Source of the DNA: Flavobacteriales bacterium
GTDB lineage: Bacteria; Bacteroidota; Bacteroidia; Flavobacteriales; UBA7312
Reading direction: 5' to 3'
NCBI GenBank assembly: GCA_029248105.1
Contig: JAQWJZ010000018.1
Location: 7,596 to 71,595, forward strand
DNA length: 64,000 nt
Part shown: in pieces, positions 36,554 through 58,832 of the stretch
Layout: each line of letters starts with the position of its first letter
Position numbering within the stretch: position 1 is the stretch's first letter
The notes under the pieces: generated by a model
The model's database searches: none
What the model saw: the letters and a program-made list of their open reading frames with translations, nothing else
Told to the model about the DNA's origin: nothing
Program-made: the position numbers and the translations under genes

Positions 36554-36555
36554 AA

Positions 36556-38028
36556 TTAGATAAGGTTAGATTCTACTATGTGATTTGCTACCACTTGTCC
36601 TGAAATGATAGACGGTGGCACACCAGGTCCGGGTACTGTAAGCTGACCTGTGTAGAAAAGGTTATTTATTTTCTTGTTAATGATTTTAGGTTTAAAGTTT
36701 GCCGTTTGAAGTAGCGTGTTAGCCAACCCATAAGCATTGCCCTTGTAGGCATTGTAATCGTTTACAAAGTCGTTAACGCAATAACTTCTCTTATATTCTA
36801 TATGTTCTTCAATGGATTGACCAGTATATTTTTCTAATCGTCTAAGCATAATGTCAAAATATTTTTCTCTAATTTCATCATTATCTTTTAGTCCTGGTGC
36901 AATTGGCATCAAAAAGAAGATGTTTTCTTTACCTTTAGGAGCAACAGACGGGTCTGTTTTGGATGGACAACAAACATAAAATAAGGGTTTGTTTGGCCAT
37001 TTTGGATCGGAATAAATTTCGTCTGTATGTTTCTCAATATCTTCATCAAAAAATAAGTTGTGATGAATCAGTTTGTTGAGCTTGGTATTAACGCCAACAT
37101 AAAACAAGAGACTGGAGGGAGAGAAGGTTCTTTTTTCCCAATAATCATCGTTGTAATTTCTATATTTTGGAGGAAGTAGTTTACTTTCAATATGATTGTA
37201 GTCAGCAGAACCTACCACAATGTCTGTTTTTAATATTCTTATATCTGTGACTATGGATTTTATTTTTTCATCTTCAATATTGACAGAATTTACGGCTTCG
37301 TTGGTGTGAAATTCTACACCTTGTTCTAGACAAATTTCTTTAAATGCATCAATGACTTTTCCGAACCCTCCCATAGGATAAAATGTGCCTTTTTTAATTC
37401 CAGAATAAGTCATTAGACTATATAAAGCAGGTGTTTGACTTGGGGCAGTTCCTAAAAATAAGACAGGAAATTCTAATAAAGATTTTAAATAATGATTTTT
37501 AAAATATTTAGCTACGTGATTTCTGTATGAAGTAAACACTTGCAGCTTGAAAACATTAGCAAATAATTTAGGTTTACATACCTCCAACAGAGATAGACCA
37601 GGTTCATAGACTAATTGGTTGATGCCAAAATCATATTTGAATTCGGCTTCCCTCATAAATTCTTCTAACTTTTTGGAAGAGCCTTTTTCAAAGCTTTCGA
37701 ATAACTCGCATACAGCAGACCAATCTGATGATAGCTTTATAGTTTTTTCTTGTTCGAAGATGATTTGAAAGCCCGGGTCTAACTGAGTTAAATCGAAATA
37801 GTCGCTTGCTTTTTTTCCAAATTCTGCGAAAAATTTCTCAAACACATCAGCCATCCAATACCAGCTAGGCCCCATATCAAAGGTGTATCCTTTAGCTTTA
37901 AACTGTCTTGCTCGTCCTCCTATGCTTTCGTTTTTCTCAAAGACGCTAACCTTATGCCCTTCTTTGGCAAGAAAAGCAGCGGCACTTAAACCCGAAAACC
38001 CACTCCCTATGACTGATATATTACTCAT
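36556..38028 (-). CDS. crtI: Phytoene desaturase
   Basis: VIGSGFSGLSAAAFLAKEGHKVSVFEKN dinucleotide fold and C-terminal LFYTGQLTVPGPGVP. Confidence 0.9.
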   Translation of the reverse strand: MSNISVIGSGFSGLSAAAFLAKEGHKVSVFEKNESIGGRARQFKAKGYTFDMGPSWYWMADVFEKFFAEFGKKASDYFDLTQLDPGFQIIFEQEKTIKLSSDWSAVCELFESFEKGSSKKLEEFMREAEFKYDFGINQLVYEPGLSLLEVCKPKLFANVFKLQVFTSYRNHVAKYFKNHYLKSLLEFPVLFLGTAPSQTPALYSLMTYSGIKKGTFYPMGGFGKVIDAFKEICLEQGVEFHTNEAVNSVNIEDEKIKSIVTDIRILKTDIVVGSADYNHIESKLLPPKYRNYNDDYWEKRTFSPSSLLFYVGVNTKLNKLIHHNLFFDEDIEKHTDEIYSDPKWPNKPLFYVCCPSKTDPSVAPKGKENIFFLMPIAPGLKDNDEIREKYFDIMLRRLEKYTGQSIEEHIEYKRSYCVNDFVNDYNAYKGNAYGLANTLLQTANFKPKIINKKINNLFYTGQLTVPGPGVPPSIISGQVVANHIVESNLI

Positions 38029-38036
38029 GTATTTTA

Positions 38037-38729
38037 TTAAGATTTTATGAATTCATAAAATTCATTTCTTGTTTTATTAGACTCTATAAATTCCCCCGTC
38101 AGTTTTGAGGTCTTCATAGATGTTCCTTGGTGTCCTACACCTCTACATTGTACACAATTGTGTGAGGCTTCAATCATCACGGCAACACCTTTGTTATTTT
38201 CTACAATCTTATTTATAGCGTCATGTATTCTTACAGTAAGATTCTCTTGTATAGCACCTCTTCGAGCATAATGTTCAACAATTCTGTTGAGTTTGCTAAG
38301 CCCAATAATCTCTTGATTGATTTGCGGAATGTAAGCAATGTGAGCTTTGCCCATAATAGTTTGATGGTGATGTGAACACATTGATATAATAGGAATATTA
38401 CCTTCGAAAATAATTCCATCGTATTCGTAATTAGGAAATGTAGTAATTTTTGGAAATTCGTTATATCGTCCAGCCCATAAATCGTTGACGTAGGCTTTGG
38501 CTACTCTTGTAGGAGTTTCTTTTGAGTTAGGATCGTTTTTCCAATCGCAACCCAAAGCATCCAAAAATTCCCCAAACTTGACAGCCGCTTTGTCAATCAT
38601 TTCAAGTTTTTCTTCTTCGTTGAGAGAGCCGTTAATATTTATTCCGTCTGCATATCCTATATTTCTTAGTTCAGGATTTATCTCAATTATCTGAGCTGAT
38701 GAGCCATTAATTATTTTAGTTTTATCCAT
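38037..38729 (-). CDS. folE: GTP cyclohydrolase I
   Basis: SMCSHHHQ and ASHNCVQCRGV are zinc/active-site motifs of FolE type I. Confidence 0.9.
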   Translation of the reverse strand: MDKTKIINGSSAQIIEINPELRNIGYADGININGSLNEEEKLEMIDKAAVKFGEFLDALGCDWKNDPNSKETPTRVAKAYVNDLWAGRYNEFPKITTFPNYEYDGIIFEGNIPIISMCSHHHQTIMGKAHIAYIPQINQEIIGLSKLNRIVEHYARRGAIQENLTVRIHDAINKIVENNKGVAVMIEASHNCVQCRGVGHQGTSMKTSKLTGEFIESNKTRNEFYEFIKS

Positions 38730-39138
38730 TGTATTCTACATAGTTATTTTCAGTTTCATACAATTTAACACTGTGCAAATTATTGCCAGTAGCTCGTATG
38801 TCGCTTTCTAATTCTTCATATATTTTTATGGCAATGTTTTCTGCAGTAGTAATAGTATCTTTCATAAAATCAACCTCAAGGTTAAGGTTTCTATGATCCA
38901 TTTTATCAACAATTCTACTTTTGATTATATCGCTCAACACTTTCAAGTCTATTACATAACCTGTATCCGGGTCAACACTGCCTTCAACCGTAACAAATAA
39001 GGTGTAGTTGTGGCCATGCCAATTTTTGTTTGAACACTTTCCAAATACTAGCTCATTTTTTTCATCAGTCCAATTTGGGTTGAATAATCGATGGGCAGCA
39101 TTGAATCTTTCTCGACGGATAACTTGTACGGTTTTCAT
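38722..39138 (-). CDS. 6-pyruvoyl-tetrahydropterin synthase (COG0720; Cx5HGH, PTPS-II-like)
   Basis: FNAAHRL...VFGKCSNKNWHGHNYTLFVTVEG is very close to the animal PTPS motif. The start is taken at the ATG of MKTVQV. The TTG-extended ORF to 39171 runs through the palindrome. Confidence 0.8.
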   Translation of the reverse strand: MKTVQVIRRERFNAAHRLFNPNWTDEKNELVFGKCSNKNWHGHNYTLFVTVEGSVDPDTGYVIDLKVLSDIIKSRIVDKMDHRNLNLEVDFMKDTITTAENIAIKIYEELESDIRATGNNLHSVKLYETENNYVEYNG

Positions 39139-39172
39139 TTTGTATAAACTTTCAGCGATAAAATTATACAAA
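39139..39172. promoter_or_regulatory. Palindromic operator candidate TTTGTATAA-N16-TTATACAAA (copy 1 of 3)
   Basis: tttgtataa-actttcagcgataaaa-ttatacaaa, with perfect 9-bp arms, between divergent PTPS-folE-crt and SDR-MMPL genes. Confidence 0.7.
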
Positions 39173-39178: not shown

Positions 39179-39186
39179 TAACTTTG
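39179..39186 (+). promoter_or_regulatory. -7 box TAnnTTTG upstream of the SDR gene
   Basis: taactttg, 10 nt before the ATG at 39197 and 6 nt after the palindrome. Confidence 0.5.
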
Positions 39187-39196: not shown

Positions 39197-39862
39197 ATGA
39201 AAATATTATTAGTTGGCTCTTCAAGTGACATCGCTCACAATCTAGTAAATAATTTTAATTCGGAGTTTGATTTTATTGAGCTTACTTCGACGCCAAGTTC
39301 TTCAAGTCAGCATCAAATCAATGTTCAGAATGAAGAAACCTACCCCAAAATTGATGGTGAAATTAATGGTTTAGTCTATTTTCCAGGCTCCATCAATCTC
39401 AGGCCTTTTTCTGGGCTCAAGCTTGTAGACTTTCAAGCAGATTATGATATTAATGTATTGGGATTAATCAAAACACTTAAACACTATCATAAACATTTGG
39501 CAGTAGATTCTTCTGTAGTGATGATTAGTTCTGTTGCGGCAACAGTAGGGATGCCTTATCATGCTTCAATTTCAATGTGTAAATCTGCTATTGAAGGGCT
39601 TTGTCGTTCTCTTGCTGCTGAATGGGCGCCTAAAGTGCGTGTTAATTGTATTGCTCCTTCTGTTGTTCAAACTAAATTATCTGCTAGACTATTCAGAACA
39701 GATGCTCAAGTAGAACAGATGAATACTCGTCATCCATTACAGAAAGTTGGTCAGCCTAAGAATATTTCAGATGCAATTTCATTTCTATTATCTGACAAAT
39801 CATCCTGGATTACGGGGCAAACATTACATGTTGATGGTGGTCTTTCAAAATTAAAGAAATAA
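39197..39862 (+). CDS. Short-chain dehydrogenase/reductase (candidate pterin/sepiapterin-type reductase)
   Basis: Rossmann N-terminus KILLVGSSSDIA and the SDR core ...SSVAA...CKSAIEGLCRSLAAEWAPKVRVNCIAP...GQTLHVDGG. Confidence 0.75.
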   Translation: MKILLVGSSSDIAHNLVNNFNSEFDFIELTSTPSSSSQHQINVQNEETYPKIDGEINGLVYFPGSINLRPFSGLKLVDFQADYDINVLGLIKTLKHYHKHLAVDSSVVMISSVAATVGMPYHASISMCKSAIEGLCRSLAAEWAPKVRVNCIAPSVVQTKLSARLFRTDAQVEQMNTRHPLQKVGQPKNISDAISFLLSDKSSWITGQTLHVDGGLSKLKK

Positions 39863-39864
39863 AA

Positions 39865-41940
39865 ATGTATCAATACATTTGGCGTTATAAGTATCTTCTT
39901 TCGGTCATAATTCTAGTCGTTTTCTCTATCTGTTTAAATCAGTTATTGAAAGCCAATATATTCTTTGATTCTGAACGTATAATAAAAGAGTTAGAAGCTG
40001 CTAATGTTGACGTTAGTGTATTGGATGATAACAACCTACTTTTCTTTGGGATTTCTTTTGAAGACAGTATATCCTATCAAGACATGTTGGATGTGGACAC
40101 TTTTCACAAGTCTTTAAAAAAGTCTAAATACGTGAAGCGTGTATTTAGTATAATCAACGATAGACAAATTATCAATACGGGTCTTTTTCCTATTACTAAG
40201 AAAGTAATGAGGATAAGCGATGAAGAATCGTTTAAGAATTCATTAAAGCAAATAGATGAAAGAGGCAATAATTTCTTATCAACAGATGGTAAGAAATTGC
40301 TCTTTTTGATAGAGAATGAATCAGGACTTAGCAAAGACGATAATCGTAAATTTGTCAATTCATTATACTCAACTGATTTGAACGAAAATATGTCAAGCGT
40401 TAATGTCAGTGGTCGTTCGCCAAGCGAATTATATTTTGAGAAAAAAGTAATTCAAGAGTTTATCATACTTACTATTGTGAGTGGCTTATTGTGCTTTTTG
40501 TTTTTACTTTTTATCACAAAAAACCTAAGGCTAGTTATTCTTACAGTTTTCAGTGTTATTGCAAGTATAGTCGTTAGTTTAGGCTTATCTCAAATTCTTT
40601 TTGGAGGTATTGAGTTGGTTATGATTATCACCCCCGCCATATTGTTTATTGTTTGTCTTTCTGATATAATGCACTTAACCAATAAGCAAAGCAAGATTAC
40701 CGTTTCTAAAGAATTATTCTTTTTGTCAAGAATAGATACTGTTGGAAAGGCTGTTGCCCTAACATCCATAACAACTGCAATGAGCTTTCTGACGTTTTTG
40801 GTGAACGATATTATGCCAATTCTACGTTTTGGCCTTATCACATCTATAGGAGTAGTCTTTACACTTTTTATCGCTTTACTGGTATATGCTATCAGTATTG
40901 ATAAAAACTTCAACAAAAGTAAGCCTTTGTTGTCTTTTCAGCGCTTTACAGATACAGTTATTTATAAACTTAAAAATGGTCAAAAGAGTAAATCTTTTCA
41001 TCTTGTAATGGGGGCATTGATTTTCATAGGAATATATGGTGTTGCTAATGTAAAAATTGATAATTACCTTACTGATGAAATCAATAAAAAGTCAGAAATG
41101 TACAAGCAAACGGCATTTTTTGACAATCACTTTGGAGGGATAAAGCCCATTACTATTTTCCTTGATAAAGAAAATATTGGTGATTTAAGTATATTATCTC
41201 AGGTAGAGAAGTCTATTGAAAAATTGGGTTTTGTAGTTGATTTTTCCAACACCAATACGTCTGCTATGATGCTAGAGCAATTGGGCTTTGCAGACCAAGA
41301 GTTAGTGGGTAAATACTTTTATATCTGCCGAACTGGAGACGAGGGTTCTTTAGCGACTCTTAAAAAACTAAATGCTTTAGAAAGGGAGTATTTGTCTAAT
41401 GATTTAACATTTAATTATTCCGGTGCTGGTTATTTGTTTGACCTACTGGGCAATGATCTTACCAAGCAACTAATTTTAGGTTTGCTAATTGCTATTTTTT
41501 CTATTGGATTGGTGTTCTTTTTGTTGAATAAATTTGATTTTAACTATTTCATTATTGCTATCGTACCAAATCTTACTCCGATAGTTGTTTGTATAGGGTT
41601 GCTTTTCTGTGGTGGTTTCTACTTTAGTTTGTCCAATGCCTTTATATTCACTATTGTATTTGGATTAATTATCGATGATTCTATTCACCTTATCAGCGCA
41701 TATACCAATGCTAGAAAAAGAAAAGTATCTCAGATAGAAGCTTTGGACTTGGTGGTCAGTAGAACAGGAGATGCTATAATAAAGACCACTTTGATAGTTA
41801 TAATTTGTCTCTTCCCTTTGTCTTTTTCAGAGTTTAAATCTGTTTCTCAGCTGTCAGTAATCACTATAATAAGTGCCTTTGTAGCAGTCTTTTTTGACTT
41901 AGTTTATCTTCCGTTAATCATTAAAAGACTGACTAAGTAG
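39865..41940 (+). CDS. MMPL/RND-superfamily (SSD-type) transporter
   Basis: 691 aa with two blocks of ~6 TM segments, each preceded by a large soluble loop. Confidence 0.7.
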   Translation: MYQYIWRYKYLLSVIILVVFSICLNQLLKANIFFDSERIIKELEAANVDVSVLDDNNLLFFGISFEDSISYQDMLDVDTFHKSLKKSKYVKRVFSIINDRQIINTGLFPITKKVMRISDEESFKNSLKQIDERGNNFLSTDGKKLLFLIENESGLSKDDNRKFVNSLYSTDLNENMSSVNVSGRSPSELYFEKKVIQEFIILTIVSGLLCFLFLLFITKNLRLVILTVFSVIASIVVSLGLSQILFGGIELVMIITPAILFIVCLSDIMHLTNKQSKITVSKELFFLSRIDTVGKAVALTSITTAMSFLTFLVNDIMPILRFGLITSIGVVFTLFIALLVYAISIDKNFNKSKPLLSFQRFTDTVIYKLKNGQKSKSFHLVMGALIFIGIYGVANVKIDNYLTDEINKKSEMYKQTAFFDNHFGGIKPITIFLDKENIGDLSILSQVEKSIEKLGFVVDFSNTNTSAMMLEQLGFADQELVGKYFYICRTGDEGSLATLKKLNALEREYLSNDLTFNYSGAGYLFDLLGNDLTKQLILGLLIAIFSIGLVFFLLNKFDFNYFIIAIVPNLTPIVVCIGLLFCGGFYFSLSNAFIFTIVFGLIIDDSIHLISAYTNARKRKVSQIEALDLVVSRTGDAIIKTTLIVIICLFPLSFSEFKSVSQLSVITIISAFVAVFFDLVYLPLIIKRLTK

Positions 41941-44220: not shown

Positions 44221-44252
44221 CTAATTATTAAATTAACCTCAATTACTATTTA

Positions 44253-45995
44253 CTAGCGTAAATTGTATCTTTTAATACTCGTTCCGTTGGAATAAATATC
44301 TATTACTATTTTGTCTGTAGAGTTTCTGTCTACTAATTCACCTAATAGGTTTATGGTATGCAGATACTCAACGTCTTTATTATTGAAGAGTATTTCGATT
44401 GATGTTGGATCTGCAGGAATTAATACCATATCTATAATATGTACTACGCCATTGTCGGCTACAACATCAGCTTGAATAACTGAGGCCATATCAATCATTA
44501 CGCTACTTCCATCTATAGTTACAACTAACACATCATTGTTCATTGTTGGGATTTCCATACCGTCCATTAAGTCCTCTGCCAAAGCATTGTCTGCGTGAAC
44601 ATGGTGTAATAGGATTTCTGTTAAGAGTTGGATATCAGCAAGTAATTCATCTACAGCTCCTTCAGGTAATGCATCAAAGGCATCATCTGTTGGTGCAAAT
44701 ACTGTATAGGGACCATCTCCTGATAAAGTTTCCCCTAAACCAGCGGCATCAATTGCTGCTTCCAAAGTTGTATGAATTGGAGACGCTTTAATGATACTCC
44801 AAACTGTAGTGTCTACTTCTCCCATTCCAGGTAATAATATTTTATCTATTATGTGCACTACACCATTACTTGCAGGAAGATCTGCTTCTATGACTGTTGC
44901 TAGATTAATCATAACTGTCATTCCATCAATGCTAACTTCCAATTCAGTGCCGTTCAATGTTGGAACCATCATGCCATCTTCTAGATCTTCTGAATAGACT
45001 TCTCCAGAGTGAACGTGATTATATAATAAGTCAATTAGTTCATCTTGGTTTGCTAATATTAAGTCAAGTGTTCCTGGCGGCAGACCATCAAATGCTTCAT
45101 CAGCTGGTGCAAATACTGTGAATGGGCCATCACCTGAAAGTGTTTCTTGCAAGTTCGCAGCTGTAATGGCTTGATTTAGAGTTGTGTGTATAGGTGAGTT
45201 TGCAATAATGTCCATTACTGTTTGCTCATCTGTAGAAGGTAAAAGCACCATATCAATAACGTGTACAATGCCATTATCAGCTACTATATTAGCAAAAGTA
45301 ACTGTAGACATATCAATCATAATTACCTCACCGTTTACAGAAACTTCTAAAATACCTTCATTAAGAGTTTCCACTTCCATACCTTCTTCTAAGTCATCAG
45401 CAGTAACATAGCCAGGGTGTACGTGTTGAAGAAGAACTGCAGTTAGAGCGTTTTCATCATCTAATAAAGCATCTAAAGCTCCTGCAGATAAGGCATTAAA
45501 GGCTGCATCTGTTGGAGCAAATACAGTAAACGGACCGTTGCCAGAAAGATCATCAACTAAATCAGCTAAAATTACAGCTGACTCTAAAATAGTATGATCA
45601 GGTGAGTTTACTATAATTTCTACAACAGTTCCGTTTTCCCCACCTTCAACAGTTATAGAGCCTACCATACCTTGTAAAGCATGATTTCCTACAGAACAAT
45701 CGTATTCATATGTTCCCGCTAAATTAAATACTTGAGTATGTATAGTAGCTCCCATAACATTGGTTGAGGATGAGTTAAAGCTTTCTGGGTTTCCAAAGCT
45801 TTCTCCTGTGACTGAGTTTGTATTTGCATTCACATCGTGTGTTCCGCCATCGTTAATCCATACAACGGTATCACCTAATGATATAGTCAGTGAACTTGGG
45901 TTATAATAAAACATTCCCGCATTAACCTGATGAACAGTTGCGAAAGTGGTTAAAGAAATAAATGATAATATAAGTACTCGTAGTAGATGTTTCAT
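44253..45995 (-). CDS. Secreted cupredoxin (plastocyanin-like) + 3x fasciclin (FAS1) + T9SS C-terminal sorting domain protein
   Basis: The start is taken at MKHLLRVLIL (signal peptide). Cu ligands are GGTHDV...YDCSVGNHALQGM. There are three ~135-aa FAS1 repeats (GPFTVFAPTDAAF...NG.VHVID.VLLP). The ~50-aa tail resembles the T9SS CTD. Confidence 0.8.
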   Translation of the reverse strand: MKHLLRVLILSFISLTTFATVHQVNAGMFYYNPSSLTISLGDTVVWINDGGTHDVNANTNSVTGESFGNPESFNSSSTNVMGATIHTQVFNLAGTYEYDCSVGNHALQGMVGSITVEGGENGTVVEIIVNSPDHTILESAVILADLVDDLSGNGPFTVFAPTDAAFNALSAGALDALLDDENALTAVLLQHVHPGYVTADDLEEGMEVETLNEGILEVSVNGEVIMIDMSTVTFANIVADNGIVHVIDMVLLPSTDEQTVMDIIANSPIHTTLNQAITAANLQETLSGDGPFTVFAPADEAFDGLPPGTLDLILANQDELIDLLYNHVHSGEVYSEDLEDGMMVPTLNGTELEVSIDGMTVMINLATVIEADLPASNGVVHIIDKILLPGMGEVDTTVWSIIKASPIHTTLEAAIDAAGLGETLSGDGPYTVFAPTDDAFDALPEGAVDELLADIQLLTEILLHHVHADNALAEDLMDGMEIPTMNNDVLVVTIDGSSVMIDMASVIQADVVADNGVVHIIDMVLIPADPTSIEILFNNKDVEYLHTINLLGELVDRNSTDKIVIDIYSNGTSIKRYNLR

Positions 45996-46020: not shown

Positions 46021-46028
46021 CAAATATA
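46021..46028 (-). promoter_or_regulatory. -7 box TAnnTTTG (minus strand) for the cupredoxin-fasciclin gene
   Basis: Plus-strand caaatata reads tatatttg on the minus strand, 26 nt upstream of the ATG at 45995. Confidence 0.5.
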
Positions 46029-46041
46029 TAACTTTTTTAAA

Positions 46042-46075
46042 TTTGTATAAATATTTTCGCTCAATGTTATACAAA
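46042..46075. promoter_or_regulatory. Palindromic operator candidate TTTGTATAA-N16-TTATACAAA (copy 2 of 3)
   Basis: tttgtataa-atattttcgctcaatg-ttatacaaa, lying between the two divergent -7 boxes (46021..46028 minus, 46081..46088 plus). Confidence 0.7.
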
Positions 46076-46080: not shown

Positions 46081-46088
46081 TATATTTG
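46081..46088 (+). promoter_or_regulatory. -7 box TAnnTTTG for the small ORF / carH-like transcription unit
   Basis: tatatttg, 6 nt downstream of the palindrome. Confidence 0.5.
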
Positions 46089-46136: not shown

Positions 46137-46301
46137 ATGCCAAGAAAGAAAAAAAAGAAAATTTCAATAGAAGAAATCAAAAAAAGAACTCCAAAAATCA
46201 TTTTTTATACTGATAAAATGAAAATCAACTTAAAAACAATGAGTAGCTTGGATTTTTGGTTCAATAAGTACCCTAATGGAAAATATATAGTCAATGACTA
46301 A
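46137..46301 (+). CDS. Small Lys-rich ORF (54 aa) overlapping the regulator start
   Basis: MPRKKKKKISIEEIKKR.... Its stop overlaps the regulator ATG (ATGACTAA). There is no family support, so it could be a non-coding leader. Confidence 0.3.
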   Translation: MPRKKKKKISIEEIKKRTPKIIFYTDKMKINLKTMSSLDFWFNKYPNGKYIVND

Positions 46302-47175
46302 GTATAGTATAGACCAGTTTTCACAAATCACTGGTATTACTAAGTTCGTTTTACGAACTTGGGAAAACCGTTATGGATTTTTGAAAGCACAACGAACCGA
46401 TACCAAAATTCGATTTTATACTGATGAATTGTTAGTGCGTGCTCTGAATTCCAATTACCTGCTCGAAAATGGTTATAAAATATCAGCAATATCTAAATTA
46501 GCTCACGATGAAATCGCCAAAAAAGTTGATGAAATCAAAAACAGTTCTGATGACAATTCAACAGAGTCCTATTATATTGCAAAATTGATTAAGTCTGCTC
46601 TTGATTTTGATTCACATCTTTTTCACTCAACTTATGAAAAAGGGGTTGAGGAGTTAGGAATACTTGAGTTTTATAAAAACGTCTTATTAGTAGCCTTTTC
46701 TAAGATTGGAATTTTTTGGCTTACCAATAGAATAGCACCTTCGCAAGAGCATTTTCTTTCTGAACTTGTTAAACAAAAAATTGGAGCTGCTGCAGATGCT
46801 GCTTCTATGAACGATTCTTTTAAAGAAACGTGGTTATTATTCTTACCTGAAAATGAATTCCATGAAATTGGATTAATTTTTGCTAAGTTTTTACTTATAA
46901 ATAGTGGGCACGAAGTTGTTTATTTAGGAGCAAACGTACCTTACGGATCGCTTTTACAGTTGGCTGAAAAAAAGCACATTGATAATGTCTTGTTTTTCTC
47001 TGTTTCTAACACTTCCAAAAGTAATCTTGATTTTACGATTAATTATTTAGAAAAGTCTTTCCCAAAATCAACACATTATTTAGTGGCAAATAGTCTTGAT
47101 ATTAATTTCTTAACTAAGAGTCATAAAATCACAATTCTTGATAACTTAGATGATTTTGTAGGAATTATTGACTAG
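46294..47175 (+). CDS. MerR-family, B12-binding light-responsive regulator (CarH/LitR type)
   Basis: N-terminal MerR HTH (YSIDQFSQITGITKFVLRTWENRYGF). W142-x9-E152-H153 (FWLTNRIAPSQEH). E188-x-H190-x-x-G193 (ENEFHEIG) followed by a Rossmann-type B12 domain. Confidence 0.85.
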   Translation: MTKYSIDQFSQITGITKFVLRTWENRYGFLKAQRTDTKIRFYTDELLVRALNSNYLLENGYKISAISKLAHDEIAKKVDEIKNSSDDNSTESYYIAKLIKSALDFDSHLFHSTYEKGVEELGILEFYKNVLLVAFSKIGIFWLTNRIAPSQEHFLSELVKQKIGAAADAASMNDSFKETWLLFLPENEFHEIGLIFAKFLLINSGHEVVYLGANVPYGSLLQLAEKKHIDNVLFFSVSNTSKSNLDFTINYLEKSFPKSTHYLVANSLDINFLTKSHKITILDNLDDFVGIID

Positions 47176-47575
47176 AAAAATTTCTACTTTTCATAAAACT
47201 TTGCATGAACTTTTTGTGGGCTTTAGTGTCTGCAATTTTTAGTTTTAGGATGTAGTTTTTTACTTGAGCTTCGAGCTTTCCGTCATTATTTAAAAAGCTC
47301 ATTTGATTGTATCTCGACATCAGTACATATTCTTCATTTTTGTGTCTAAAGTATATTGCGCTTCCTTTGGTTCTCATCTCAATAGTACAATAAACTAAGT
47401 CATTGTAATTTTCAAAATCTATATCAAATGCTGTTGGTCTAATGTTTAATAGTAGATATTTTGGAGATCCATAAAAGCCATATTTTATTTTCTCTAAAAG
47501 CGTGTAGGCTTTACCGCAAATATTTACTAATTCTTCTCTTATTTTTTTCTGATTTTGGCTTGTTTTAAATAGCAT
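47165..47575 (-). CDS. Hypothetical protein (136 aa)
   Basis: The start is taken at the ATG of MLFKTSQNQ. The longer ORF to 47617 runs into the palindrome and promoter. No family recognised. Confidence 0.4.
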   Translation of the reverse strand: MLFKTSQNQKKIREELVNICGKAYTLLEKIKYGFYGSPKYLLLNIRPTAFDIDFENYNDLVYCTIEMRTKGSAIYFRHKNEEYVLMSRYNQMSFLNNDGKLEAQVKNYILKLKIADTKAHKKFMQSFMKSRNFSSQ

Positions 47576-47580: not shown

Positions 47581-47588
47581 TATATTTG
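47581..47588 (+). promoter_or_regulatory. -7 box TAnnTTTG (plus strand) ahead of the 47660..59552 gene string
   Basis: tatatttg overlapping the left arm of palindrome copy 3. Confidence 0.45.
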
Positions 47589-47618
47589 TATAACAAAAAT
47601 ACAAAATAGTTATACAAG
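47585..47618. promoter_or_regulatory. Palindromic operator candidate TTTGTATAA-N16-TTATACAAg (copy 3 of 3)
   Basis: tttgtataa-caaaaatacaaaatag-ttatacaag, in the 84-bp divergent intergenic region. A minus-strand -7 box (tatttttg, plus coordinates 47594..47601) lies in its spacer. Confidence 0.7.
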
Positions 47619-47659: not shown

Positions 47660-48121
47660 ATGGCTCATTACCAACTCCGTAAAGAACAGTTTTTAAATAC
47701 AGATATAGATACTATTTGGGATTTCGCATCATCTCCGGCTAATTTGAAAGAAATTACCCCTGACTATATGTTGTTTGACATCACTTCAAAAGACTTGCCC
47801 GAGAAGATGTATCCCGGTATGATAATCTCCTATAGAGTATCTCCTTTGCTTAATATCAAGATGAATTGGGTAACCGAAATTACTCAAGTTAAAGACAAGC
47901 ATTTTTTTATTGATGAACAACGATTAGGTCCATACAAGATGTGGCATCACCAACACTTTTTTGAAGAAAAAGACGGTGGAATTCTTATGACCGATATTAT
48001 AACCTACATTCCTCCTTTTGGAATACTTGGAGATATTGCCAACACTCTATTAATCAAAAAACAGCTTAAAGGCATTTTTGACTATCGTTTTAAAGTAATG
48101 GATGAAAAATTTAATCGATAA
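47660..48121 (+). CDS. SRPBCC (START/Bet v1-like) family protein
   Basis: 153 aa. The pattern W.F.S.P.NL..ITP...GPYK.W.H.H.F is typical of the SRPBCC proteins found next to photolyase genes. Confidence 0.7.
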   Translation: MAHYQLRKEQFLNTDIDTIWDFASSPANLKEITPDYMLFDITSKDLPEKMYPGMIISYRVSPLLNIKMNWVTEITQVKDKHFFIDEQRLGPYKMWHHQHFFEEKDGGILMTDIITYIPPFGILGDIANTLLIKKQLKGIFDYRFKVMDEKFNR

Positions 48122-48124
48122 GTA

Positions 48125-48604
48125 ATGAAACGACCTTGGAATATAATCAGCCCTCCTGTATATAGTTTAGTTACTTATGACGATGAAGGCAAAGTCAATA
48201 TGAATATATGTACATACGTTTCTGCGGTGAGTATGAAGCCTAAGATATACTCTATTGCTATTGACTATACCACTAAGACGTATAAAAATCTTGAAAAATC
48301 TTCCAAAGTGGTGTTACAATTATTAAGTGCTAACAATCTAAAGGTTATTAGAAAGTTAGGTAAAATTAGCGGCAAACTTTTCGATAAGGATCGTTATCTT
48401 AATTCATACAATTTGCTTCAGCCATGGAAAAATTATGCTGTCTTAAAGGATACCTGTGCGCTAATAGAGTTAGAAAAAAAATCTGTTGTCAATAATCATG
48501 GTGATCACGCTATTTTTTTCTTTGACGTAACAGGTTTTAAAACCATTTCTGAAAAAAATGTGCTGTCCTTTCAAGACTTAGTGGATAATAGAATAATACT
48601 TTAA
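48125..48604 (+). CDS. Flavin reductase-like (split-barrel FMN-binding) protein
   Basis: 159 aa. The N-terminal part resembles the Flavin_Reduct domain (VYSLVTYDDEGKVNMNICTYVSAVSMKP). Confidence 0.65.
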   Translation: MKRPWNIISPPVYSLVTYDDEGKVNMNICTYVSAVSMKPKIYSIAIDYTTKTYKNLEKSSKVVLQLLSANNLKVIRKLGKISGKLFDKDRYLNSYNLLQPWKNYAVLKDTCALIELEKKSVVNNHGDHAIFFFDVTGFKTISEKNVLSFQDLVDNRIIL

Positions 48605-48605
48605 T

Positions 48606-49238
48606 ATGCATCTTACTCAAGAACAAATACAACAAACACCACGCATCAAAAGGTTGAATTTAATCAATTCAATTACAGGTGTTAAACCAGCAAATTTAAT
48701 AGGAACTGTTTCTGATGATGGGCATACTAATTTGGCGGTTTTTAGTTCAATAGTCCATTTGGGAAGTAATCCTGCTCTTTTGGGATTCGTCTTGCGTCCT
48801 CAACATGAAGTGAGGCGAGATACTTATGATAATATTTTGCAGAATAAGTGTTACACTATAAACCACATTCATACAGATTTTATTGAGAACGCTCATTATA
48901 CGTCAGCAAAATTTGATAAAGATGAATCTGAATTTGATAAATGCAATTTTACTGAAGAATTTTTGTTCGACTTTCAAGCACCTTTTGTCAAGGAAAGTCG
49001 TGTTAAGCTAGCAATGCAATTAGAAGATATGTTACCAATAGAATTAAACAATTGTATGATGGTAATTGGTTCTATACAACATTTGTGGATTGACGATGTG
49101 GCTGTAGAGGATGATGGTCAAATCAATTTGGAGTTATTGAATGACGTTGGAATAGGAGGGTTAAATAGCTACTATAGGCTAGAAAGGATAGGGCAATTTC
49201 CATATGCTAGGGCTAACGAATTACCTGATTTTCGATAA
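48606..49238 (+). CDS. Flavin reductase family protein
   Basis: GVKPANLIGTVSDDGHTNLAVFSSIVHLGSNPALLGFVLRP is the Flavin_Reduct pattern. Confidence 0.75.
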   Translation: MHLTQEQIQQTPRIKRLNLINSITGVKPANLIGTVSDDGHTNLAVFSSIVHLGSNPALLGFVLRPQHEVRRDTYDNILQNKCYTINHIHTDFIENAHYTSAKFDKDESEFDKCNFTEEFLFDFQAPFVKESRVKLAMQLEDMLPIELNNCMMVIGSIQHLWIDDVAVEDDGQINLELLNDVGIGGLNSYYRLERIGQFPYARANELPDFR

Positions 49239-49241
49239 ATT

Positions 49242-49373
49242 TTGAAAAAGCCTTTGCCACATAAAATTTGTACCGTTTGTCAGAGACCTTTCTCTTGGCG
49301 AAAAAAGTGGGAAAGAGTATGGGAGGATGTTAAATACTGTAGCCAACGCTGTAGAAGAAATAAAAGTAATTAG
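49242..49373 (+). CDS. DUF2256 small zinc-ribbon protein (43 aa; absent from the ORF track)
   Basis: Translation from TTG is [42 protein letters not shown]. CxxC...CxxxC and FSWRKKWE match DUF2256. It sits 2 nt before the cryptochrome-like gene. Confidence 0.75.
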
Positions 49374-49375
49374 TA

Positions 49376-50887
49376 ATGAATAGTGTAAATATTATTTTTC
49401 CTCATCAGTTATTTCAGCAAAGTGATTTGTTAGATAATAACTTCCCTATATACCTTGTTGAGGAATACCTATTTTTTAAACACTACAATTTTCATAAACA
49501 AAAACTGGCTTTCCATAGAGCAAGTATGAAGTTTTATCAATCTTATCTTGAGTCAAAAGGCAAAAAAGTAATCTATGTTCAAGCTAATGAAACAACTTCA
49601 GACATTCGCCTATTGATACCTGAACTAATCGACAAAGGTGTGCGTGAAATACACATCATTAATCCAGTTGATGATTGGCTTGAAAAAAGATTGTCAGAGG
49701 GGGCTAAAGATATGCTTTGTACCATCTATGAAAGTCCATATTTTATTAATCTATCAGATGAATATTCAGACTTTTTTAAGGCGACCAAGAAGAAGTATTT
49801 TCAAACCTCTTTTTACATTGAGCAACGTAAAAAATTAAGGATATTAATAGATAAAAATGCTTCACCCACAGGCGGTAAATGGAGCTATGACACCGATAAT
49901 AGAAAGAAGTATCCTAAAGATAAAGAAGCGCCCAAATTCAGGCCTTTGCCGTCCAACGAATTTTATTCGGAGGCTGTAACCTATGTCAATCAGAATTTTT
50001 CTGATAATCTTGGTCAACTGTCCGATAATCCTATTTACCCCAATGATTTTGCTCAAACATCAAAATGGCTTAATGACTTCTTTGACCAACGATTTTATGA
50101 CTTTGGTATTTATGAAGATGCTATTGTAGACAAAGAACACTTTCTTAATCATAGTATTCTTACGCCCATGCTTAATGTGGGTTTAATAACTCCTGCGCAA
50201 ATTATAGATGCTGTGTTGGCTTATAGCCAGACCAATGAAATCCCCCTTAATTCCTTAGAAGGATTTATCCGTCAAATTATTGGTTGGAGAGAATTTATAA
50301 GAGGAATATATGTTGCTAAAGGTACTGAAGAAAGAAACCGTAATTTCTTTCAACATAGTCGTAAAATACCACCTTCTTTTTATGATGGCACTACAGGAAT
50401 AGTGCCCATTGACACAACCATAAAAAAGATACTAAAAACAGCTTATGCTCATCATATAGAACGGTTGATGGTATTAGGCAATTTCATGTTGTTGTGTGAG
50501 TTTGATCCAGATGAAATTTACCGTTGGTTTATGGAGTTATTTATTGATGCTTACGATTGGGTGATGGTGCCTAATGTATATGGCATGAGTCAATTTGCTG
50601 ACGGTGGACTCATGTCTACTAAGCCGTACATAAGTAGTAGTAACTATTTGAGAAAAATGAGTAATTACAAAAAGGATGAATGGCAAGATACATGGGACGC
50701 ATTATACTGGCAGTTTATAGATAAACACAGGGATGTCTTTAATAAAAACATAAGAATGAAATTTATGGTTTCTATGTATGATAAAATGTCAAGCCAAAAA
50801 AAGGAGAAATTCGTACAAATTGTAGATAATTATTTTACAACTTTGGACGTTGAATTTAAAAAAACAGAAAAGATAAAAAATGGCTAG
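49376..50887 (+). CDS. Cryptochrome/photolyase-related protein (DPRP / FeS-BCP-CryPro clade) lacking the Fe-S cysteines
   Basis: IIFPHQLF N-terminus, GWREFIRG, HHIERLMVLGNF and DAYDWVMVPNVYGMSQFADGG. There are only two Cys in the whole protein. Confidence 0.8.
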   Translation: MNSVNIIFPHQLFQQSDLLDNNFPIYLVEEYLFFKHYNFHKQKLAFHRASMKFYQSYLESKGKKVIYVQANETTSDIRLLIPELIDKGVREIHIINPVDDWLEKRLSEGAKDMLCTIYESPYFINLSDEYSDFFKATKKKYFQTSFYIEQRKKLRILIDKNASPTGGKWSYDTDNRKKYPKDKEAPKFRPLPSNEFYSEAVTYVNQNFSDNLGQLSDNPIYPNDFAQTSKWLNDFFDQRFYDFGIYEDAIVDKEHFLNHSILTPMLNVGLITPAQIIDAVLAYSQTNEIPLNSLEGFIRQIIGWREFIRGIYVAKGTEERNRNFFQHSRKIPPSFYDGTTGIVPIDTTIKKILKTAYAHHIERLMVLGNFMLLCEFDPDEIYRWFMELFIDAYDWVMVPNVYGMSQFADGGLMSTKPYISSSNYLRKMSNYKKDEWQDTWDALYWQFIDKHRDVFNKNIRMKFMVSMYDKMSSQKKEKFVQIVDNYFTTLDVEFKKTEKIKNG

Positions 50888-52127
50888 AATTATTTTTACA
50901 ACAATACTCATAGCTTTCATTTTAAGTATCGACATTTATGTATGGTCGGCGTTTAAAAGTCAAATTACAGGAAATCCAATATTTAAATATGGCTTTTGGC
51001 TCATTACTGCAATTACTATTGCTTTGATGTATTACCCAGCTATAAATACCAATATGACACTTTACCCCAATTATTTGGTAATTATTTTTGGTTTTGTGTT
51101 TACCATAATTGCATCCAAATTAGCAATGATTTTACCTTTGTTGATTGATGATGTTATTCGTCTATTTAAGTATTTGTATCAATCCATTTTTGTAAATAAA
51201 AGCTTATCTCTAGGTGGTCAGCCAATTAGCAGAATAGATTTTTTAAAAAATACAGCTTTAGGTATTGGGGCATTAACTTTTTCACTGTTTTCATATGGAA
51301 TTCTTGTAGGCAGGTTTAATTTTAAAAAACACATAGTTGATTTATCACTAAACAACTTTCCTAAAGGATCTAAGCCTTTGAAGATTGTTCAGATTTCGGA
51401 TTTGCATTTGGGTAGTTTTCAAAGAAAAGATAAGCTTTTGGAAGCGGTAGAATTAATCAATGAAGAAAAGCCTGACTTGATATTTTTTACAGGAGATTTG
51501 GTCAATAATCATGCTAAAGAAGCCGAGCCATTTGTTGACACATTAAAGCAGCTCAAATCGAAGTATGGTAAATTTGCAGTTTTGGGAAATCACGATTATG
51601 CAGACTATGTTGGTTTAGATTTAAATTCTGAAGACGGTCGTTCCAAATGGCAAAGGAATTTTGATGAGATAAAATCGCATTTTGCAAATTCGGATTTCAA
51701 ACTTTTACTCAATGAAACCGAGATGCTTAGTCTGGATGGATTAGAAATAAATGTAGTCGGAGTAGAGAATTGGGGCGATGGTAGGTTTTCAAAATACGGT
51801 GATTTAGAAAAAGCCATGCTATCGGCTAAAGAAGGTATTCCAACTTTTTTACTTTCTCATGATCCTACACATTGGACTAACAAGGTTATTCCTTTCTCTA
51901 AACAAGTAGACTTACAATTAGCAGGGCATACTCATGGAATGCAGTTTGGTATTGAAATTGGCGGCGTAAAATGGAGCCCTTCGCAATGGAAGTATAAATT
52001 TTGGGCTGGTCTTTACCAAAACAAAGAGCAATACCTTTACGTCAATAGAGGTATAGGTCATTTGGGTTATCCTGGAAGAGTAGGAATTATGCCTGAAATA
52101 ACTATTTTAAATATTCAATCAACCTAA
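50880..52127 (+). CDS. Membrane-anchored metallophosphoesterase
   Basis: N-terminal TM segments, then VQISDLHLG, TGDLVN, GNHDY and GHTHG motifs. Confidence 0.85.
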   Translation: MARIIFTTILIAFILSIDIYVWSAFKSQITGNPIFKYGFWLITAITIALMYYPAINTNMTLYPNYLVIIFGFVFTIIASKLAMILPLLIDDVIRLFKYLYQSIFVNKSLSLGGQPISRIDFLKNTALGIGALTFSLFSYGILVGRFNFKKHIVDLSLNNFPKGSKPLKIVQISDLHLGSFQRKDKLLEAVELINEEKPDLIFFTGDLVNNHAKEAEPFVDTLKQLKSKYGKFAVLGNHDYADYVGLDLNSEDGRSKWQRNFDEIKSHFANSDFKLLLNETEMLSLDGLEINVVGVENWGDGRFSKYGDLEKAMLSAKEGIPTFLLSHDPTHWTNKVIPFSKQVDLQLAGHTHGMQFGIEIGGVKWSPSQWKYKFWAGLYQNKEQYLYVNRGIGHLGYPGRVGIMPEITILNIQST

Positions 52128-52133
52128 CAACTT

Positions 52134-54515
52134 ATGAAGTATTACTTATCCTTAATTTTTACGTGTCTTATTTTTTATTCAAATGCCCAGACTGTGAGGG
52201 TATATGGTAGCGTTAAAAATGCCCTAAATAATGAGGCAATTCCTTTTGCAAATGTTATAATTGATGGGACTTCAAAGGGAGCAACCACAGATATTGATGG
52301 AAATTTTGAATTGCTTGATATTACTCCTGGTATATATAACTTTAAGTGTAGTTACATCGGCTTTAACACGGATTTAAAAACAGAGATACAATTAACTCCA
52401 AATAAGAATTTAAGATTAGATTTTTTCTTAACAGAAAACGCTCAAATTATTGATGAGGTTCAGGTTACTGCCAATACGTTTAATAAAACAGAAGAAAGCC
52501 CTACTAGTTTAAGGACAATTAATGCATCTGAAATATTAAGAAGCCCAGGAGGAAATCGTGATATTTCAAAGGTAATAGCCAATTTACCAGGCGTTTCTAG
52601 TTCGCCATCTTTTAGGAATGATATTGTAATTCGTGGTGGCGCACCCAATGAAAATCGTTTTTTTCTCGATGGTGTTGAAATACCTAACATCAATCACTTT
52701 GCCACACAAGGGTCTTCAGGTGGTCCGGTAGGCATTTTGAATGTCAATTTTATTAGAGAAGTAGATTTTTATTCAGGAGCTTTTCCTGCAAATAGAGGAA
52801 ATGCTTTGAGCTCTGTAATGGAACTTAAACAAATTGAAGGAAGTGATGAAGAATTGAGCGCATCATTTATGTTGGGTTCAAGTGATGCGGGTTTAACGAT
52901 AAGCACTCCTTTATCAGAAAAATCTACTATGTTGTTGTCAGCAAGACGTTCCTATTTGCAGTTTTTATTCAAAGCACTGCAATTGCCTTTTTTGCCTACT
53001 TACAACGATTTGCAATTTAAGTATACTCACAAGCCAGATGCTAAAAATCAATTTAATATTATTGCTTTGGCAGCTATTGATGAATTTACACTTAACCCAG
53101 AAGCTAATGAGGGTATCGATGACCTTCAACAACTTGCTCAAAATGAATATACGCTGAATAACTTGCCCGTAAATGAGCAATGGAATTATACCCTTGGTGG
53201 AACATGGAAACGTTTTTTTGATAACTCTAATTTATTTGTTGTATTGAGTCGTAGCCACCTCAATAATACGGCAGTAAAGTATGCTGACTATGCAGACGAA
53301 ACATCGGAAAAACTATTAGATTATGAATCTCAAGAAATAGAAAATAAAGCCAGAATAGAGTATAATTTTAGAAGAAGTGATGTTAAATTTAACGTAGGGT
53401 TAAATCTAGAAGATGCTACCTATTTAAATTCAACAAATCAAACTATTACTTCAGGAACTTCTATTATTCCAGTTCTAGTGGAAGCAGATTTGCATTTTAT
53501 TAAATACGGTGCTTTTGCTCAATTGAGTAAGACTTATTTGGTTGATAGGTTAGTAACATCTTTTGGTTTTAGAATAGATGGGAATAGTTTTACAGAGAAT
53601 TCAACAACTCCTAATTTTTCACCTCGACTCTCTTTGGCATATAATCTTTCACAAAAAGCAAGTGTAAACGCTAACTTAGGGAGGTATTATCAGTTACCAG
53701 CTTATACAATTTTGGGGTATGGGTTAAATAATAATTTCGAAAATCAAGATGTTGAATATATTCAATGCGACCATGCCGTCTTTGGTTTAGAATTCAACCC
53801 TTCTAATTACAGTAAAGTAACGCTTGAGACGTTCTATAAGCAATACGATAACTATCCTTTTTCTATTATTGATAGTATTTCTTTAGCCAATTTGGGTGGT
53901 GACTTTGGTGTAATCGGTAACGAGGATATTTCTTCCATCTCTAAAGGCAGAAGTTATGGGGTAGAGTTTTTAGCTCAACAAAAACTAAGCTCATCGGTTT
54001 ACGGTATTATGTCTGTGACTTATTATAGAAGTGAGTTCGAAGATAAAAATGGTGAGCTTATTCCTTCGGCTTGGGATAATCGTTTTATTTTTAATATGAC
54101 TGCCGGTAAAAAATTCAAAAGAAATATTGAACTAGGGCTAAAATTCCGTTACTCTGGCGGAGCACCTTATACTCCTATCGATTTAGTTACCTCCAGTGAT
54201 AAAGGTGTTTGGGATAAAAATCGAAGAGGAGTGTTAAGTTACGATGCTTTGAATACTGAACGTTTAAACAATGTTCATGGTGTTGACTTGCGATTGGATA
54301 AAAAATGGTATTTCAACAAGTGGAGTTTGAATGCCTACATAGATGTGGAAAATTTATATAACTTCAAGATACAACTGCCATCCGAAGTAGGTATTGACCC
54401 TGAAATTGGCAATCAAGTATATACAGCACAAGACAGTAATCAATATTCTCTTTACGAAATTATTAATGAGTCAGGAACAGTACTTCCTAGTATTGGGCTA
54501 TTAATAGAATTTTAA
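52134..54515 (+). CDS. TonB-dependent receptor with an N-terminal carboxypeptidase-regulatory-like domain
   Basis: Signal peptide, VYGSVKNA...DGNFEL (CarbopepD_reg), a plug region, a long beta-barrel and the terminal ...GLLIEF. Confidence 0.85.
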   Translation: MKYYLSLIFTCLIFYSNAQTVRVYGSVKNALNNEAIPFANVIIDGTSKGATTDIDGNFELLDITPGIYNFKCSYIGFNTDLKTEIQLTPNKNLRLDFFLTENAQIIDEVQVTANTFNKTEESPTSLRTINASEILRSPGGNRDISKVIANLPGVSSSPSFRNDIVIRGGAPNENRFFLDGVEIPNINHFATQGSSGGPVGILNVNFIREVDFYSGAFPANRGNALSSVMELKQIEGSDEELSASFMLGSSDAGLTISTPLSEKSTMLLSARRSYLQFLFKALQLPFLPTYNDLQFKYTHKPDAKNQFNIIALAAIDEFTLNPEANEGIDDLQQLAQNEYTLNNLPVNEQWNYTLGGTWKRFFDNSNLFVVLSRSHLNNTAVKYADYADETSEKLLDYESQEIENKARIEYNFRRSDVKFNVGLNLEDATYLNSTNQTITSGTSIIPVLVEADLHFIKYGAFAQLSKTYLVDRLVTSFGFRIDGNSFTENSTTPNFSPRLSLAYNLSQKASVNANLGRYYQLPAYTILGYGLNNNFENQDVEYIQCDHAVFGLEFNPSNYSKVTLETFYKQYDNYPFSIIDSISLANLGGDFGVIGNEDISSISKGRSYGVEFLAQQKLSSSVYGIMSVTYYRSEFEDKNGELIPSAWDNRFIFNMTAGKKFKRNIELGLKFRYSGGAPYTPIDLVTSSDKGVWDKNRRGVLSYDALNTERLNNVHGVDLRLDKKWYFNKWSLNAYIDVENLYNFKIQLPSEVGIDPEIGNQVYTAQDSNQYSLYEIINESGTVLPSIGLLIEF

Positions 54516-54516
54516 G

Positions 54517-55425
54517 ATGGCAGAAAAAGTACTTATTACAGGAGCAAGTGGCTCATTAGCAATTCGGGTAAAACGAATACTCATATCTCAAGGCTATGAA
54601 GTTATTGCATTATCGACCAATAAGCGAAAGGTAGATAATAAGGACGTCTTTTATTGGAATATTTCTGAAAAATTAATTGACAAAAATGCATTGTTAGACT
54701 GTCAGCATATCATTCATCTTTCAGGTTATAACATCATGAAGCCTTGGACGGAAAAAAACAAGGACTTAATGTATGAAAGTAGGATAGATGCGGCTGATTT
54801 ATTATATGAACGGTGTAAATCTTTAGGAGTAAATCCAAAAACATTTGTTTCCGCTTCAGCACTTGGCTTCTATGGTATTGATGCCCAGGGTATCCAATCA
54901 GAAGAAGACTCTCCTGCTGACGATTGGCTCTCTAAAATGTGTGTTGATTGGGAGTCTGCTGCTCAACAATTTGAGACACTAGGCAGTAGAGTAATTCAAA
55001 TGAGAATATCTCTGCTTTTAAGCAAAGATGCTGGTTTTTTACAGCCTACAATTTTATCTATGCGCTTGGGTATGGGTGTTGTGTTTGGAAATGGAATACA
55101 ATCCATTGAATGGATACATATAGAGGATGCAGCAAAATTCGTATATTATGCCATCGAGAATCGGTCGGTCAGTGGAGCTTATAATATGGCCTCAAAACAA
55201 AAATGGACTCAATATGACTTTATGAAATTTATAAAGTCTAAAGTAGCAAAGTATGCTATTCTCATAAAATTGCCATTATTTGTTTTAAGATTGATTTTTG
55301 GGGGAAGAAGTATTATCCTTGTGGGTGGCTGCTCACTCTCAGTTGATAAGCTTTTAAGCACTGGATTTAAGTACGATTATCCTACTTTAGAAAGTGCTAT
55401 TAATAAAGAATTAATGAAGTCATGA
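54517..55425 (+). CDS. TIGR01777-family (YfcH/SDR39U1-like) epimerase-fold protein
   Basis: VLITGASGSLA Rossmann start, ~300 aa, C-terminal DUF1731-like ...GFKYDYPTLESAI. Confidence 0.8.
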   Translation: MAEKVLITGASGSLAIRVKRILISQGYEVIALSTNKRKVDNKDVFYWNISEKLIDKNALLDCQHIIHLSGYNIMKPWTEKNKDLMYESRIDAADLLYERCKSLGVNPKTFVSASALGFYGIDAQGIQSEEDSPADDWLSKMCVDWESAAQQFETLGSRVIQMRISLLLSKDAGFLQPTILSMRLGMGVVFGNGIQSIEWIHIEDAAKFVYYAIENRSVSGAYNMASKQKWTQYDFMKFIKSKVAKYAILIKLPLFVLRLIFGGRSIILVGGCSLSVDKLLSTGFKYDYPTLESAINKELMKS

Positions 55426-58830: not shown

Positions 58831-58832
58831 TA

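Follow-up and report, generated by a model that had tools for sequence, protein, structure and literature searches.

Regulators of the CarH/LitR type have been studied in two classes, and their operators are the natural background for the element considered here. The footprinted operators of class I CarH are made up of tandem direct 11-bp repeats, nnnnTnnACAn, of which Thermus thermophilus has three and Bacillus megaterium four, the variable arrangements of the Myxococcales still being tandem (PMC9304148). The class II LitR proteins of Pseudomonas, PplR1 and PmlR2, are footprinted repressors with the site T(G/A)TACA-N12-TGTA(C/T)A and a regulon that includes phrB, folE and cryB (PMC9758184). 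For flavobacteria, or Bacteroidetes in general, our full-text search of open-access papers and preprints found no CarH/LitR operator, and this agrees with the initial annotation of the DNA described below, whose author was aware of none. The DNA in question is a 64-kb stretch (hereafter the window, meaning the whole stretch analysed) from an uncultured marine Flavobacteriales bacterium, which contains a 34-bp palindrome in three copies. Judging from sequence comparison, we consider this palindrome very probably the operator of a CarH/LitR-type regulator (class I, binding adenosylcobalamin, AdoCbl) encoded at 46294-47175 of the same window.

A pattern search of the window found the palindrome, TTTGTATAA-N16-TTATACAA(A/G), at three loci and no others, with matches on both strands of each and without mismatches (39139-39171/2, 46042-46074/5 and 47585-47617/8), save for a G as the last base of copy 3. 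When the window was shuffled 100 times with dinucleotides preserved and up to two mismatches were allowed, the mean number of matches was 0.14 and none of the shuffles reached six. Within the 64 kb the 9-mer TTTGTATAA is confined to the left arms of the three copies; the three spacers are unrelated in sequence and all 16 nt long. All three copies are intergenic and lie between divergent genes. The search and the shuffles bear out the initial annotation as to where the copies lie and as to the conserved arms and spacer length with free spacer sequence, and the placement of the copies in divergent promoter regions holds as well.

The conservation of the element was followed in 28 loci from species-representative genomes, which had been scanned with an alignment of the regulator (regulator identity 41-91%). 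The window and these loci, 574 kb together, were searched for the motif with up to two mismatches in the 18 arm positions and with spacers of 6-30 nt. A spacer of 16 nt gave 53 sites, against 0-3 for each of the other spacer lengths, and all of these 53 sites fall outside open reading frames (ORFs), though ORFs occupy 92% of the sequence. Over the 28 genomes the arms and their 16-nt spacing are conserved, the spacer sequence drifts, and the sites are found in at least six different gene arrangements. The information profile of the sites reads TTTGTATAA-n-w-w-T and then stays at ~0 bits through the centre, the values in the arms being inflated by the choice of the sites on their arms. The motif is thus conserved upstream of orthologous genes in related genomes, a point on which the initial annotation had proposed to check its reading.

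In the window, and likewise in 24 of the other loci, a site is found no more than 350 bp upstream of the transcription unit to which the regulator belongs. The locus L008 has such a site too, which the automated count missed owing to a spurious ORF, and L014, whose contig ends at the gene, lies outside this test. In L019 and L020 the sites precede an SDR gene that heads a same-strand cluster of SDR, glutathione peroxidase, a 153-aa protein and the regulator, with a 163-bp gap after the SDR gene. With these two loci included, a copy stands before the regulator's unit in 26 of the 27 loci outside the window that allow the test.

Some of the sites show variations on the basic design. Upstream of the SDR gene just mentioned, L019 (8056-8122) and L020 (8055-8121) have two abutting palindromes whose starts are 33 bp apart, placing TATA centres at 0, 22, 33 and 55 bp in an 11-bp register. 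Between crtI and the regulator of L017 (9943-9976) and L018 (9941-9974) lies the variant TTGTATAG-N16-CTATACA(A/T), in which the spacer-adjacent base is changed in both arms; this may be a co-evolved specificity variant. In a more distant clade, as in L024 (9882-9980) and also in L025-L028, two sites ~65 bp apart separate the fasciclin gene from the regulator, and one of them abuts the fasciclin start codon.

The regulator itself carries the domains expected of the family. Pfam recognises MerR_1 (PF13411, E 1.5e-13) at residues 4-70 and B12-binding_2 (PF02607, E 7.6e-6), and the cofactor motifs W142-x9-E152-H153 (Wx9EH) and E188-x-H190-x-x-G193 (ExHxxG) are invariant among 19 homologues of 55-84% identity. 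In proteins of this kind Wx9EH lies over the upper (adenosyl) face of the cofactor, and ExHxxG supplies the lower axial His. By phmmer the closest solved relatives are T. thermophilus CarH/LitR (5C8D, 3WHP), aligned over the full length, DNA-binding and cobalamin domains alike, and sharing the register of both motifs; the identity to T. thermophilus CarH is ~20%. When the AlphaFold2 model (pLDDT 80.8) was compared with the PDB by Foldseek, the top 48 matches listed were all T. thermophilus CarH/LitR structures, the best of them, 5C8D and 5C8E, matching over the full length with E ~1e-14 and in the cobalamin-binding domain with a TM-score of 0.84-0.86 and a root-mean-square deviation of 2.7 Å.

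Each arm of the palindrome holds TnnACA, the most conserved hexamer being TATACA. That this hexamer matches the TnnACA of footprinted CarH operators is in keeping with a DNA-binding domain whose recognition region is similar, and the assignment of the palindrome to the neighbouring regulator, as the initial annotation had proposed, is supported computationally by this core together with the conservation, the intergenic location, the linkage to the regulator, the promoter register described below, and the fold and motifs of the protein. Could the palindrome instead be bound by a different transcription factor, for instance a global oxidative-stress regulator or one of the CRP/FNR type like LdrP of Thermus, the CarH-like gene being merely one of its targets? 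Thermus does employ a second regulator for its light genes, and the loci were picked through the regulator, so that their co-occurrence with the site is not independently established. We nevertheless find this unlikely: the CarH-type half-site core goes with a DNA-binding domain that closely resembles the one in T. thermophilus CarH, the 29 loci share no other conserved DNA-binding protein, and half-sites 24-25 bp apart exceed the reach of a CRP/FNR dimer. The site stands ahead of the unit of the regulator itself in almost all genomes, the classic signature of autoregulation.

The position of the sites relative to promoter elements suggests how such an operator might act. Sigma-A promoters of Bacteroidetes, as known from Bacteroides and Flavobacterium, have TTTG at -33 and TAnnTTTG at -7; a sigma-70 promoter scan found 55 promoters where 51 were expected, the chance level that is to be expected in this phylum. 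An exact TAnnTTTG box accompanies 50 of the 53 sites on at least one strand and 21 of them on both, the intergenic background being 2.3 boxes per kb per strand. Counted by strand (106 instances), the box starts 3-6 nt past the palindrome in 30 and overlaps the first arm, TAnn preceding its TTTG, in 26. In the window, exact boxes lie near or overlap every copy, just as had been annotated (46038-46045 on the plus strand and those marked exact in Table 1). In the aligned regions upstream of the regulator, 3-6 nt past the palindrome comes TATATTTG or a sequence very like it, and a conserved TTTG lies within the spacer, ~20 bp upstream of that box; the operator would therefore bracket the -33 element of the regulator promoter. 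Copy 1 touches the start codon of the gene for 6-pyruvoyl-tetrahydropterin synthase (PTPS), so the predicted promoter of that gene must lie within the palindrome, and the SDR gene begins 24 nt beyond the other side. With the PTPS start abutting the site and the SDR ATG ~10 nt after its box, both mRNAs would be leaderless or nearly so. The distance between PTPS start codon and palindrome is 0 nt in all orthologues of this arrangement (in L008 the start is called differently). One bound complex would thus cover essential elements of both divergent promoters, which fits repression by occlusion.

It might be asked whether the CarH-like protein, instead of repressing in the dark, activates at these sites in the light or regulates in both senses, considering that the founding members of the MerR superfamily are activators. 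MerR-type activation, however, requires a short dyad inside a -35/-10 spacer of 19-20 bp, and here the 34-bp site spans the -33 element of one promoter and the -7 box and start site of another, a variation that does not fit the single fixed geometry of such activation, since one geometry cannot activate all of these promoters. The characterised B12-type CarH/LitR proteins and the class II LitR proteins are, moreover, all repressors, and we regard activation as quite improbable. We give still less weight to the idea that two back-to-back sigma-A promoters produce the palindrome incidentally, with no need for a dedicated regulator, and think it very unlikely. The arms do open with TTTG, the -33 consensus, and the TAnn that precedes it in 26 of the 106 instances has been noted above. 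Yet 34-37 bp separate the TTTG of the arm from the conserved -7 boxes (+38 to +41), a distance too great for a -33/-7 pair, and these boxes have their matching -33 element in the spacer; TTATACAAA, the right arm, does not make a -7 box; and the full 9-bp arm and the exact 16-nt spacing are conserved, when ordinary promoters of the same loci are without them. As for a hairpin in RNA or DNA (a terminator, an attenuator or an element like the repetitive extragenic palindromes), the arms can pair (minimum free energy -5.6 to -8.6 kcal/mol, z-scores -1.5 to -2.4), but the weak folding with a 16-nt loop and no T-run, the location between divergent gene starts rather than 3' of genes, arms conserved in sequence and not through compensatory change, and an Rfam scan of the window with no match, and hence with no cobalamin riboswitch, led us to reject this extremely improbable reading.

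Taking the palindrome as the operator of the CarH/LitR-type regulator, we can consider the following scenario. In the dark, the AdoCbl-loaded regulator would oligomerise and place two dyad-related DNA-binding domains on the inverted TGTATA/TATACA cores, whose facing edges are separated by 18 bp. Once bound, the regulator would cover the -33 and/or -7 elements and the start sites of the divergent promoters and shut out RNA polymerase. Light would photolyse AdoCbl by cleavage of the Co-C bond, upon which the oligomer would dissociate and the promoters open. The regulon so released would comprise carotenoid, pterin, photolyase/cryptochrome, peroxide-defence, base-excision and fasciclin-cupredoxin genes, and the regulator gene itself would be derepressed too, giving negative autoregulation. 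We infer the binding, its repressive sign, its dependence on AdoCbl and light, and the oligomeric state by analogy with the studied members of the family.

Several considerations weigh against the assignment and need to be kept in view. All 28 loci were selected through the regulator, so the co-occurrence of sites and regulator is seen among genomes that have the regulator, and orthologous sites are related copies, not independent events. The promoter elements are consensus predictions and not mapped start sites. Outside this lineage the 18 specified bases do not by themselves identify the site: in a metagenome-wide scan over all environments for TTTGTATAA-N{6,30}-TTATACAAA, the 16-nt spacer accounted for 8 of 120 among the matches listed and was not enriched over other spacers. 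The regulator scores 72.9 bits with the NCBIfam CarH equivalog NF052513, whose cut-off is 400, yet this is its best-scoring family; because fold and cofactor motifs match and the score stays below the cut-off, the protein, as judged from its sequence and model, is a divergent class I CarH/LitR-type protein and no orthologue of the studied ones. Finally, the characterised class I operators have three to five tandem direct 11-bp repeats, whereas here there are two inverted cores with no central repeat, and the geometry of the CarH tetramer is therefore not simply transferable.

The global scan, we should add, carries no information on this lineage. Among its listed matches (L029-L148), L057 is the only locus with the 16-nt spacer that has related genes. 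The commonest spacer is 6 nt, TTTGTATAA-N6-TTATACAAA, with 17 of 120 among the matches listed, and this palindrome may be the site of an unrelated regulator in other organisms. A homologue search with the distant regulator of L022, aimed at cultured flavobacteria such as Dokdonia, returned only uncultured sequences.

Between copy 2 and the regulator lies a small conserved ORF of 54 aa, which the window shares with 14 loci (L001-L013, L016) and which the more distant clade lacks. Its substitutions are concentrated at third codon positions (250, versus 66 at the first and 32 at the second), and its relatives form 32 metagenome clusters, none of them annotated. No match was found in Pfam or NCBIfam, and no significant fold match in the PDB; the AlphaFold2 model (pLDDT 73) has the order alpha-beta-beta-alpha-beta. 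The 54-aa protein may be a partner of the regulator.

Table 1. Positions of the predicted operator copies, promoter boxes, regulator and target units in the window
Feature	Position	Strand	Remarks
Predicted operator copy 1, TTTGTATAA-N16-TTATACAAA	39139..39172		Between PTPS and SDR genes; orthologous copies in 10 loci
Predicted operator copy 2	46042..46075		Between fasciclin-cupredoxin gene and small-ORF/regulator unit; orthologous copies upstream of the regulator in 25/28 other loci
Predicted operator copy 3, TTTGTATAA-N16-TTATACAAG	47585..47618		Between 136-aa unknown and 153-aa gene heading the photolyase operon; orthologues found
TAATTTTA, candidate -7 box, PTPS-crt operon	39159..39166	-	Inside the palindrome; conserved; exact TAATTTTG in L003 and L009
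TAACTTTG, predicted -7 box, SDR promoter	39179..39186	+	Exact; 6 nt after the palindrome; ATG ~10 nt after the box
TATATTTG, predicted -7 box, fasciclin gene promoter	46021..46028	-	Exact; 13 nt beyond the palindrome
TATATTTG, predicted -7 box, small-ORF/regulator promoter	46081..46088	+	Exact; 5 nt after the palindrome; -33 position inside the spacer
TATATTTG, possible -7 box, 47660 operon	47581..47588	+	Exact; overlaps the left arm of copy 3
TATTTTTG, predicted -7 box, 136-aa gene	47594..47601	-	Exact; inside the spacer of copy 3
Conserved 54-aa ORF, MPRKKKKKISIEEIKKRTPKIIFYTDKMKINLKTMSSLDFWFNKYPNGKYIVND	46137..46301	+	Stop overlaps the regulator ATG (ATGACTAA); predicted co-transcription from the operator-controlled promoter
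CarH/LitR class-I-like regulator, 293 aa	46294..47175	+	MerR winged helix-turn-helix, four-helix bundle, Rossmann B12 domain
Target unit 1	34715..39138	-	PTPS, GTP cyclohydrolase I, CrtI, CrtB, 163-aa unknown, NUDIX (Pfam, regulon table)
Target unit 2	39197..41940	+	221-aa SDR (39197-39862) and MMPL/HAE3-like membrane protein
Target unit 3	44253..45995	-	Cupredoxin domain and three fasciclin domains in one protein (Pfam)
Glutathione peroxidase, SOUL, Fpg/Nei, NUDIX	41941-44175		After the fasciclin-cupredoxin gene and a terminator-like hairpin
Target unit 4	47165..47575	-	136-aa protein, function unknown
Target unit 5, probable long operon	47660..59552	+	First genes: 153-aa weakly SRPBCC-like, two flavin-reductase-like, DUF2256, DPRP cryptochrome-like, metallophosphoesterase; remaining genes: TonB-dependent receptor, epimerase/DUF1731, photolyase, CrtI-like, CruF-like, lycopene cyclase

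The predicted regulon was counted over same-strand gene strings whose start is no more than 350 bp from a site, as loci in which a gene is so placed over loci that have the gene. On this count the regulator stands behind a site in 26/29 loci, the fasciclin-cupredoxin gene in 21/21, the 153-aa protein in 21/25, the CrtI family in 18/20, SDR in 17/17, the flavin-reductase-like genes in 17/18, PTPS in 14/14, CrtB in 13/14 and glutathione peroxidase in 13/16, with smaller counts for MMPL-like, Fpg/Nei, SOUL, GTP cyclohydrolase I, CrtZ, photolyase and others. As predicted from sequence, the targets make a coherent set for photoprotection and the repair of photo-oxidative damage. The initial annotation had called the neighbours of the sites light-related without exception. 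This stands for the carotenoid, pterin and photolyase/cryptochrome targets; it does not stand for two targets of unknown function, nor for the fasciclin-cupredoxin protein, which looks secreted and has a copper domain of the plastocyanin/azurin type, whose gene accompanies the operator more constantly than any other, and for which we know of no link to light.

The pterin-branch genes (PTPS, GTP cyclohydrolase I and possibly SDR) have one operator in common with crtI and crtB, and this sharing suggests light-induced pterin synthesis, perhaps for the antenna cofactors of photolyase and cryptochrome. In target unit 5, a DUF2256 gene of 39 aa with a TTG start (49254-49373, plus strand; Pfam E 1e-20), below the 60-aa limit of the ORF list, fills an apparent gap of 138 bp before the DPRP gene, so that the string is without obvious internal break. 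A terminator-like hairpin with a T-run at 44195-44222 (minus strand) separates the fasciclin-cupredoxin gene from the glutathione peroxidase gene, and co-transcription of the glutathione peroxidase-SOUL-Fpg-NUDIX genes with the former may thus be incomplete. L017 (13438-14553, minus strand) and L018 (13432-14550, minus strand) encode a 371-aa protein with a GCFWC methionine-sulfoxide-reductase motif in its C-terminal half, the gene lying within a minus-strand string that adjoins a copy of the motif. In Dokdonia MED134, light raises the transcripts of crtB, crtI, a MerR-family regulator, photolyases, DASH cryptochrome, DPRP and methionine sulfoxide reductase as measured by RNA-seq (bioRxiv 10.1101/2023.12.25.573297). 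This light-induced set is the same functional set as the predicted regulon.

A cis-element and a regulator are thus newly proposed for the light induction of carotenoid and photolyase genes in marine flavobacteria, for which none had been assigned hitherto, and the defined 34-bp operator with its CarH-type sensor makes a testable circuit. The motif would also let light regulons be predicted from metagenome-assembled genomes of uncultured lineages. If the proposal is true, the light response of abundant uncultured marine Flavobacteriales would depend on the supply of vitamin B12 and would in this way be tied to how much B12 is available in seawater. CarH biochemistry and optogenetics would gain a natural operator in which two inverted half-sites flank a fixed spacer of 16 bp; such an operator would widen the known plasticity of CarH-DNA recognition and could reveal a different oligomer-DNA geometry. 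The complete picture, in which two-fold-symmetric binding to widely spaced inverted half-sites, a 54-aa partner in part of the clade, a photoprotection regulon under one operator and a B12-dependent light response all go together, is put forward tentatively, and we are rather doubtful that every part of it will hold.

Lastly, the system needs to be set against those already described. With the class I CarH/LitR proteins of Thermus thermophilus, Bacillus megaterium and the Myxococcales it has in common the domain order, the fold, both cofactor motifs, the half-site core, the (here predicted) overlap of the operator with core promoter elements, and crtI/crtB and the regulator's own gene as targets. 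It differs from them, the inverted arrangement of the cores apart, in a much larger predicted regulon, which takes in pterin, photolyase/cryptochrome, peroxidase, Fpg and fasciclin genes, and in the translationally coupled 54-aa ORF found in part of the clade. The self-complementary TATA centres of the palindrome are 22 bp apart, the distance between the first and the third direct repeat of the tandem operators, and the centres of the hexamers 24 bp; a reading of the site as tandem direct repeats was considered and is ruled out by the ~0 bits at the central spacer positions.

The nearest precedent for two near-identical hexamers (of the TGTACA/TATACA type) with a fixed long spacer is the site of class II LitR, which likewise overlaps the -35 element or the start site and serves a light regulon with photolyase, folE (GTP cyclohydrolase I) and a cryptochrome-like gene. 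There, however, the hexamers are separated by 12 nt, whereas 18 nt separate them here at all 53 sites, and the variable positions suggest an opposite polarity of the half-sites. The class II proteins are also without the Rossmann B12 domain, light being sensed by a LOV partner; the protein described here has the full B12 module with the axial His, and no LOV gene is found among its annotated neighbours. The activators MerR, CueR and SoxR have the same type of N-terminal winged-helix domain and palindromic operators as well, but they are coiled-coil dimers that sit on a short dyad in an elongated -35/-10 spacer and activate by distorting the DNA, unlike the present 34-bp site with its widely spaced half-sites and a promoter position that varies with the target. 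The palindrome and its regulator are, in this comparison, a new architectural variant inside a known family and not a new kind of system.

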